Source: a virus. Taken from it: 64,000 nucleotides of DNA. Shown piece after piece: positions 59,750 through 59,941 of the stretch (positions are counted from its first letter, which is position 1; each line of letters begins with the position of its first letter). The DNA is taken from IMG/VR virus record IMGVR_UViG_3300027861_000016, positions 1 through 64,000 of that record; one strand, 5' to 3'. A program made the translations under genes and the position numbers. The notes under the pieces were generated by a model. That model saw only the letters and a program-made list of their open reading frames with translations. It was not told where the DNA came from and did no database searches.

Positions 59750-59781
59750 TTTGCATTATAACAAAAATAATATTACTTTTG
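59750..59781 (+). promoter_or_regulatory. Bacteroidota housekeeping promoter
   Basis: TTTG(59750)-N20-TACTTTTG(59774-59781), matching the -33/-7 consensus. Confidence 0.75.
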
Positions 59782-59884
59782 TCTCACTTATTTGAAACTA
59801 CTATAGCTGGTAAACGTTTAATTAAATGTTCGCCAACAACACATGTTTATTTCATTTAAGTAAATACGGAAAACCCTAATATAC

Positions 59885-59941
59885 CCCTTAATAGACTTGT
59901 TGATTTGGCGATCAAAATTCTTATTAAGGGTTTTCTTTTTT
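59885..59941 (+). terminator. Attenuator-like terminator with UUGGCG apical loop
   Basis: CCCTTAATA/TATTAAGGG stem plus inner TTGAT-TTGGCG-ATCAA, then TTTTCTTTTTT. Confidence 0.65.

Follow-up and report, generated by a model that had tools for sequence, protein, structure and literature searches.

Short non-coding RNAs that run from a dedicated promoter to an intrinsic terminator include the enterobacterial type I 3′-UTR small RNAs such as DapZ and MicL, which have their own promoter and a terminator in common with the mRNA, and the oop RNA of phage lambda; such units lie just past the stop codon of an upstream gene and leave a single-stranded loop free for pairing. The trp-type leaders, the countertranscript attenuators of pT181 and pIP501, and the CI RNA immunity of phage P4 have mutually exclusive nested folds just 5′ of a T-tract hairpin. 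In the I-complex plasmids, the antisense RNAI kisses stem-loop I of the rep mRNA (PMC10724649), and a 5′-rUUGGCG-3′ loop motif is described in the ColIb-P9 Inc RNA (Asano et al. 1998, as cited in PMC10724649 and PMC3753616). For the Bacteroidetes, ribosome profiling and RNA-seq of Flavobacterium johnsoniae gave a −7 element TAHHTTTG, with G at −5 and AT-rich DNA upstream (PMC6847099), and the −7 consensus is given likewise in PMC7641319. [quoted passage not shown]

Here we analyze a locus within the first 64 kb (the window) of a 95.9-kb IMG/VR virus record, for which the sole sequencing run listed with the stretch is a seawater metagenome, its source DNA sample. Because its portal protein is only 31–35% identical to the portals of known crAss-like phages, the source genome is a distant, uncultured marine Crassvirales phage. 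We favor reading the locus as a small unit, bounded by promoter and terminator, from which a non-coding RNA of roughly 156 nt is made and whose hairpin also closes the upstream operon, and we put the probability of this reading at about 0.5.

Genome and setting of the locus

The genes of this phage run leftward at 435–48105 and 88248–95290 and rightward at 53684–87418, and by analogy with phi14:2 we took the rightward (plus-strand) block to be the putative early region. The longest ORF-free gap of the genome (59747–60433, 687 nt), in which no frame opened under codes 11, 4 or TAG=Q, has a membrane ORF of 67 aa on one side and an orphan ORF of 111 aa on the other, and the unit sits at its head. 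The features of the gap are as follows.

59750..59781, plus strand: candidate Bacteroidetes-type promoter, with −33 TTTG at 59750-53, a 20-nt AT-rich spacer and −7 box TACTTTTG at 59774-81
59760..59781, both strands: 22-bp imperfect palindrome ACAAAAATAATATTACTTTTGT, which creates a second, leftward −7 box, TATTTTTG, at 59769-59762 (minus strand)
59766-81, plus strand: extended 16-nt box AATAATATTACTTTTG, which contains the −7 box
59786..59941, plus strand: predicted 156-nt non-coding RNA, with +1 at A59786 and 3′ end in the T-tract, both ends being predictions
59786..59861, plus strand: closed 5′ domain, the first 76 nt, with outer stems ACUUA/UAAGU and UGAAA/UUUCA enclosing hairpin 1
59808-59835, plus strand: hairpin 1, whose 3′ arm contains CGCCAA (59831-36)
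59826..59879, plus strand: 17-codon ORF MFANNTCLFHLSKYGKP, whose AUG is in hairpin 1 and whose stop overlaps the outer 5′ arm of the terminator
59830..59851, plus strand: 5′ strand of an alternative (antiterminator-like) helix, pairing with 59890-59911
59890..59911, plus strand: 3′ strand of the alternative helix, overlapping the upper 5′ arm and apical loop of the terminator
59869..59935, plus strand: compound terminator hairpin, 67 nt, with two near-isoenergetic 5′-arm registers
59869-77 with 59927-35, plus strand: outer stem GAAAACCCT/AGGGTTTTC, paired in the terminator
59886-94 with 59921-29, plus strand: stem CCCTTAATA/TATTAAGGG, paired in the terminator
59900-04 with 59911-15, plus strand: apical stem TTGAT/ATCAA, with loop TTGGCG at 59905-10
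59931..59941, plus strand: T-tract TTTTCTTTTTT, the 3′ end of the terminator
59942..60433, plus strand: remainder of the 687-nt gap (termed the large RNA in the first-pass annotation), non-coding, with no −7 box inside

Immediately upstream of the unit, the 67-aa ORF (59543–59746) belongs to a very widespread small-protein family; it has no above-threshold Pfam domain, and its 225 relatives at E ≤ 1e-3 lie on contigs of 0.5 to 350 kb, one of them on a 97-kb contig. Further upstream, the ORF at 59069–59512 is a PNKP-type HAD phosphatase by Pfam (PF25109, E 3e-32), and the ORF at 55846–56790 has relatives, at up to 70% identity, across many unrelated large phage contigs. On the other side of the gap, the orphan 111-aa ORF starts 492 nt past the terminator, has no Pfam match and no relatives in IMG/VR, and in a collection of 5.8 billion proteins matches only itself. 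The region has its best sigma70-like site (TTCACA-N18-TATAAT, 11/12) at 60140–60169, 265 nt ahead of this ORF; sigma70-like sites are not enriched in the intergenic DNA of this genome.

The only Rfam match in the whole window is to tRNA (48.5 bits, 61262–61382), with a 53-nt insert at the anticodon-loop position, and ARAGORN found no tRNA in the window and none in the full 95.9-kb record. Within hairpin 1, the segment UGGUAAA (59808-14) complements the 3′ end, presumed to carry CCA, of this tRNA-like RNA, in a 7-nt, AU-rich pairing of chance-level probability that was spotted post hoc.

Promoter region

The promoter proposed by the first-pass annotation, TTTG-N20-TACTTTTG, is present with all of its motifs (59750-53 and 59774-81). 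Its −7 box and AT-rich upstream DNA agree with the consensus of the Bacteroidetes primary sigma factor (−7 TAHHTTTG), the optional −33 TTTG stands 20 nt upstream, and the G-at-−5 rule applied to the box at 59774-81 gives a predicted +1 at A59786, the very base at which the closed 5′ domain begins. Only two exact copies of the 16-nt box, AATAATATTANNTTTG, are present in the 95.9 kb, at 59766 (plus strand) and 52679 (minus strand), both of them intergenic and each heading a short ORF-free unit closed by a T-run hairpin; at up to one mismatch, three were found against 0.5 expected, and all three are intergenic. For the generic pattern TTTG-N17-23-TANNTTTG, the window holds 4 against 3.4 expected, not clearly beyond chance; strand-matched TANNTTTG boxes in intergenic DNA number about 6 against about 4 expected and are hardly enriched, and a k-mer search for a common promoter in intergenic DNA returned nothing clear. 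Since the 16-nt box is rare and intergenic, and fits the consensus with its G at −5, we consider the promoter probably real and host-type.

The palindrome at 59760–59781 makes the promoter box bidirectional, and from the leftward box an RNA antisense to the 67-aa ORF would arise; a dimeric protein could just as well bind the palindrome. At the second exact copy, the identical 16-nt box (AATAATATTATATTTG, 52679–52664) heads the ORF-free unit at 52464–52679 (minus strand), which is closed by a clean terminator at 52496–52471 plus T6, and directly past this unit lies a promoter-like TTTG-N19-TACATTTG (52467–52437, minus strand). A near-copy with two mismatches, AAAATTATTATATTTG at 53499 (minus strand), makes the A of ATG 53479 its predicted +1, so this first leftward ORF may be translated from a leaderless mRNA. 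Small minus-strand ORFs at about 53479–53232 and about 53203–53040 were missed by the simple strand-block gene call, which assigned everything above 53000 to the plus strand. The GC-rich patch at 53545–53665 folds no better than shuffled sequence (z 0.07).

Predicted RNA and terminator

Folded from the predicted +1 to the T-tract, the 59786–59941 RNA has a minimum free energy (MFE) of −31.1 kcal/mol (z −2.98, with 3 of 600 shuffles as good), and the reverse strand of the same interval gives z = −2.68. No ORF of at least 30 codons was found within 59786–59941 under codes 11, 4 or TAG=Q, apart from a 34-codon TTG frame at 59897–60001 that crosses the terminator. The 17-codon ORF is probably untranslated, because its peptide has no run of any amino acid, U stands at −3, the AUG is inside hairpin 1, and the genome has no canonical tRNA gene to sense. 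The sequence as it stands shows the motifs, how the fold compares with shuffles, how rarely the promoter box occurs, and that coding capacity is absent.

A leader of about 150 nt that ends in a long terminator hairpin and a poly-T tract had been described here, and it is indeed present; in silico, the hairpin is predicted to be a strong intrinsic terminator, with a CCC/GGG-based stem followed by the U-tract TTTTCTTTTTT in the sequence and its predicted fold. The two candidate 5′ arms, GAAAACCCT (59869-77) and CCCCTTAATAG (59885-95), form an imperfect direct repeat, and their registers have energies of −15.6 and −15.0 kcal/mol, compared with −14.2 kcal/mol (plus strand) and −15.3 kcal/mol (minus strand) for the best T-run hairpins in the rest of the genome. 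The upstream segment GAAAACCCT had also been noted as able to pair with the terminator 3′ arm; the pairing stands, and since both registers end at the U-tract, GAAAACCCT lengthens the hairpin and does not compete with it.

All seven other T-run hairpins of the genome lie in intergenic gaps, all are simple and 20–28 nt long, and three of them (64396, 69964 and 79609) begin 26–34 nt past a plus-strand stop codon; with these hairpins all intergenic and three just past stops, the phage appears to use intrinsic terminators. At 67 nt, the hairpin studied here is far longer; it has an additional apical stem-loop and starts 123 nt past the preceding stop, and the additional stem-loop may indicate that more than termination happens at this place. 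Its UUGGCG loop is exposed in the predicted fold, with an unpaired probability of about 0.98 for the four central bases. When the apical region was compared with the translation-initiation regions of all phage genes, the best interaction (−13.2 kcal/mol) was weaker than that of shuffled seeds (mean −15.7 kcal/mol), and none of the phage's other intergenic regions holds a paralogue of the unit.

Alternative pairing within the leader

The reported complementarity between the loop TTGGCG (59905-10) and the upstream CGCCAA (59831-36), which extends to TCGCCAA (59830-36)/TTGGCGA, was confirmed, and an alternative pairing that involves both segments exists in silico, between 59830-51 and 59890-59911. 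The helix consists of 7+5+7 bp (19 bp, interrupted) around the core TCGCCAA/TTGGCGA, with a duplex energy of −20.4 kcal/mol, and the fold that contains it is the MFE structure for transcripts ending at 59912–59926, ahead of synthesis of the terminator 3′ arm. Compared with dinucleotide-shuffled versions of the 81 nt upstream, its p value is 0.0065, and compared with other 81-mers of the genome it is 0.034; with the 7-mer held fixed, the extension of the helix is reached by 12% of shuffles (p 0.12), which is not beyond chance. TTGGCG and CGCCAA each occur three times on the plus strand of the genome, and finding such a pair within 150 nt has a p of about 0.01–0.03 before any look-elsewhere correction for the many hairpins. 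Two long alternative helices are not rare in AU-rich sequence.

In the predicted fold, the unpaired probabilities across 59830-36 are 0.11, 0.99, 0.04, 0.00, 0.00, 0.09 and 0.90, and the GCCA core is paired. The alternative helix excludes the upper terminator but does not involve the outer stem (59869-77 with 59927-35), and helix and outer stem could thus be present together in a pseudoknot. Folding of the growing chain completes the 5′ domain by 59867, with about 45 nt still to be made until the alternative helix has its partner strand, and heuristic findpath barriers are about 12–13.5 kcal/mol from the 5′ domain to the alternative fold and about 21 kcal/mol from the alternative to the terminator fold. 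In this model, the barrier of 12–13.5 kcal/mol is too high to cross in the few tenths of a second available, and with the 5′ domain forming first and the barrier to the alternative fold high, the predicted default is termination; read-through would need something that blocks formation of the 5′ domain.

Searches for homologues

Neither blastn in distant mode with 59500–60800 nor tblastn with the 67-aa neighbor matched any of 50,697 phage records. Among eight loci around relatives of the PNKP-phosphatase neighbor (up to 59% identity), none was similar to the gap, and 80 loci around relatives of ORF 55846–56790 (up to 70% identity) were not syntenic and had no nucleotide similarity; the 393-aa ORF gave a single weak partial match only. 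The exact 16-mer of the apical hairpin had 42 matches in IMG/VR, which we read as chance because none extended past 18–23 nt, two further seeds had none, and a scan of JGI metagenomes for the stem pattern returned one unrelated chance match. Rfam 15 gave no match at E ≤ 1 over 58500–61500 and, at E ≤ 10 over 59740–60440, only three unrelated sub-threshold ones. Across the phage records, IMG/VR, the JGI metagenomes and the 5.8-billion-protein collection, the stretch has no relatives.

Discussion

According to the reading that we favor, host RNA polymerase of the Bacteroidetes sigma-A type would start near A59786 from the −7 box TACTTTTG, the initial 76 nt of the transcript would fold into the closed 5′ domain and bury CGCCAA, and the polymerase, on reaching the long compound hairpin and TTTTCTTTTTT, would terminate by default and release a roughly 156-nt non-coding RNA with its apical UUGGCG loop exposed. 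We infer an active promoter, a hairpin that does stop transcription and a discrete RNA that accumulates. Since the same hairpin would also halt transcripts from the upstream genes, the layout resembles that of a 3′-UTR small RNA with its own promoter and the terminator of the mRNA in common. Several observations count against a small RNA unit, namely that TANNTTTG is not enriched in intergenic DNA, that the searches yielded no homologue whose conservation or covariation might support promoter, fold or terminator, that host-type start signals may be irrelevant at this place since the virion polymerase of early crAss-like transcription has no known motif, that the plus strand has no −7 box between this terminator and the next at 64396, and that the hairpin measures 67 nt, compared with 20–28 nt for those elsewhere in the phage. 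Compared with the DapZ and MicL type and with oop RNA, the unit here is a predicted one, its terminator is unusually long and compound, and no target was found in the phage translation-initiation regions; nor do we know of an Hfq-type context in Bacteroidetes. As to the role of the RNA, we rank trans action or a decoy function above cis control, and the CGCCAA/UUGGCG match is most likely incidental.

One alternative would make the hairpin the terminator of the upstream operon only (genes up to 59746), with the −7 box silent or incidental and no discrete small RNA. The hairpin does stand 123 nt past the stop of the last tightly packed upstream gene, TANNTTTG lacks intergenic enrichment, and crAss-like early genes are read by the virion polymerase. 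However, the phage's other terminators past plus-strand ORFs begin 26–34 nt from the stop, not 123 nt, the exact 16-nt box is common to another non-coding unit and has near-copies before the first leftward ORF, and the predicted +1 is the very start of a closed RNA domain, and we regard this alternative as unlikely, ranking it just after the attenuator considered below. The idea from which the analysis set out, that an IncI/IncB or CopA/CopT-like antisense or pseudoknot device controls replication or lifestyle through a UUGGCG kissing loop, is scarcely credible. The likeness to the I-complex plasmids (ColIb-P9 Inc RNA, IncB/IncK RNAI) is that one RNA carries both UUGGCG, in a hairpin loop, and CGCCAA, a short way off: the loop has a YUNR-type start and is exposed, its complement is 69 nt upstream, and the motif is a real one in the ColIb-P9 Inc RNA as the citing papers describe it. 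However, this is one six-base match, of an identity expected by chance at about 1–3% per site, and none of the defining features examined was found here. CGCCAA at 59831-36 lies in the 3′ arm of the hairpin 1 stem and not in a loop; a consensus scan found no opposite-strand countertranscript promoter at 59916–60100, the only minus-strand promoter-like sites being the −7 box at 59769 and a sigma70-like site at 59796–59767, both upstream of the hairpin and pointing away; there is no rep gene and no coupled leader ORF with a pseudoknot at the ribosome-binding site, the next ORF being the orphan 492 nt away; and no plasmid antisense family is matched in Rfam. The genome is moreover of the lytic Crassvirales type, for which plasmid-like copy control would be remarkable. 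The proposed copy-number or lifestyle module, with neither countertranscript promoter, rep gene nor Rfam family to its name, does not survive these tests.

The best placed of the alternatives, though itself unlikely, is a conditional attenuator in which the nascent leader chooses between the antiterminator helix and the terminator, a factor or ribosome that prevents formation of the 5′ domain being the trigger, and in which read-through feeds the 490-nt non-coding stretch, orphan ORFs and two tRNA-shaped RNAs, up to the terminator at 64396. It draws on the 7+5+7-bp helix (−20.4 kcal/mol), which belongs to the MFE fold of transcripts ending at 59912–59926, on the high barriers in both directions, which make the RNA look bistable, and on the lack of any −7 box on the plus strand from 59942 to the next terminator at 64396, so that the downstream genes may depend on read-through. 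Weighing against it, 12% of shuffles match the helix once the 7-mer is given and the unconditioned p is only 0.0065–0.034, the helix spares the outer terminator stem and might coexist with it, the earlier-forming 5′ domain blocks the helix, and, unusually for a leader, 492 nt separate it from the nearest ORF downstream. Nor did a sensor come to light, with no codon run in the leader peptide, no riboswitch or T-box match in Rfam and no canonical tRNA gene in the genome. The trp-type, pT181, pIP501 and P4 attenuators differ in the same respects from this locus, where no sensor was found, the alternative helix spares the terminator base, the statistics are lukewarm and the next gene is 490 nt away. 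A version in which translation of the 17-codon ORF (59826–59879) picks the fold, or occludes the terminator 5′ arm at the stop, is very improbable: the alternative helix does have its 5′ strand inside the ORF, and the outer arm of the terminator overlaps the stop codon at 59877-79, but the peptide has no amino-acid run, the AUG sits in a stable hairpin with U at −3, the geometry differs from the canonical 1:2 / 2:3 / 3:4 layout, the genome is without a canonical tRNA gene, and one ORF of 17 codons within 150 nt is unremarkable. We likewise hold it improbable, if less so, that the locus is a bistable RNA switch of a new kind, in which a factor holds the 5′ domain open, the 19-bp UCGCCAA/UUGGCGA helix forms first and host polymerase reads through into a 4.6-kb block; candidates for that factor would be a protein of the phage, one of its own tRNA-shaped RNAs, or a ribosome engaged on the 17-codon ORF. 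If such a switch existed, the 4.6-kb block read would comprise the long non-coding stretch, orphan genes and two anticodon-less tRNA-like RNAs.

For the small promoter-to-terminator unit, the nearest phage comparison is phi14:2, which like this genome has its longest non-coding gap in the rightward block, with a −7-type box about 25–28 nt past the preceding stop in both phages. In phi14:2 (NC_021806), the box TACCTTTG lies at 2929–2936, 25 nt past the g004 stop, at the head of a 1.7-kb transcribed non-coding gap, and it could explain the late persistence of those RNAs. The two loci differ in that our gap has no sequence similarity to that of phi14:2 and expression is known only for phi14:2; a scan of the phi14:2 gap found no terminator hairpin about 150 nt in.

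The locus is of modest interest unless the terminator turns out to be conditional. The non-coding repertoire of marine crAss-like phages is almost unexplored, and if expressed, the unit would give these phages a defined gene for a small RNA, along with a candidate promoter box of host type and a candidate terminator. It would also mark an entry point of host-polymerase transcription into the rightward gene block, and the 16-nt box common to the two non-coding units is a concrete, testable promoter signal for this phage.
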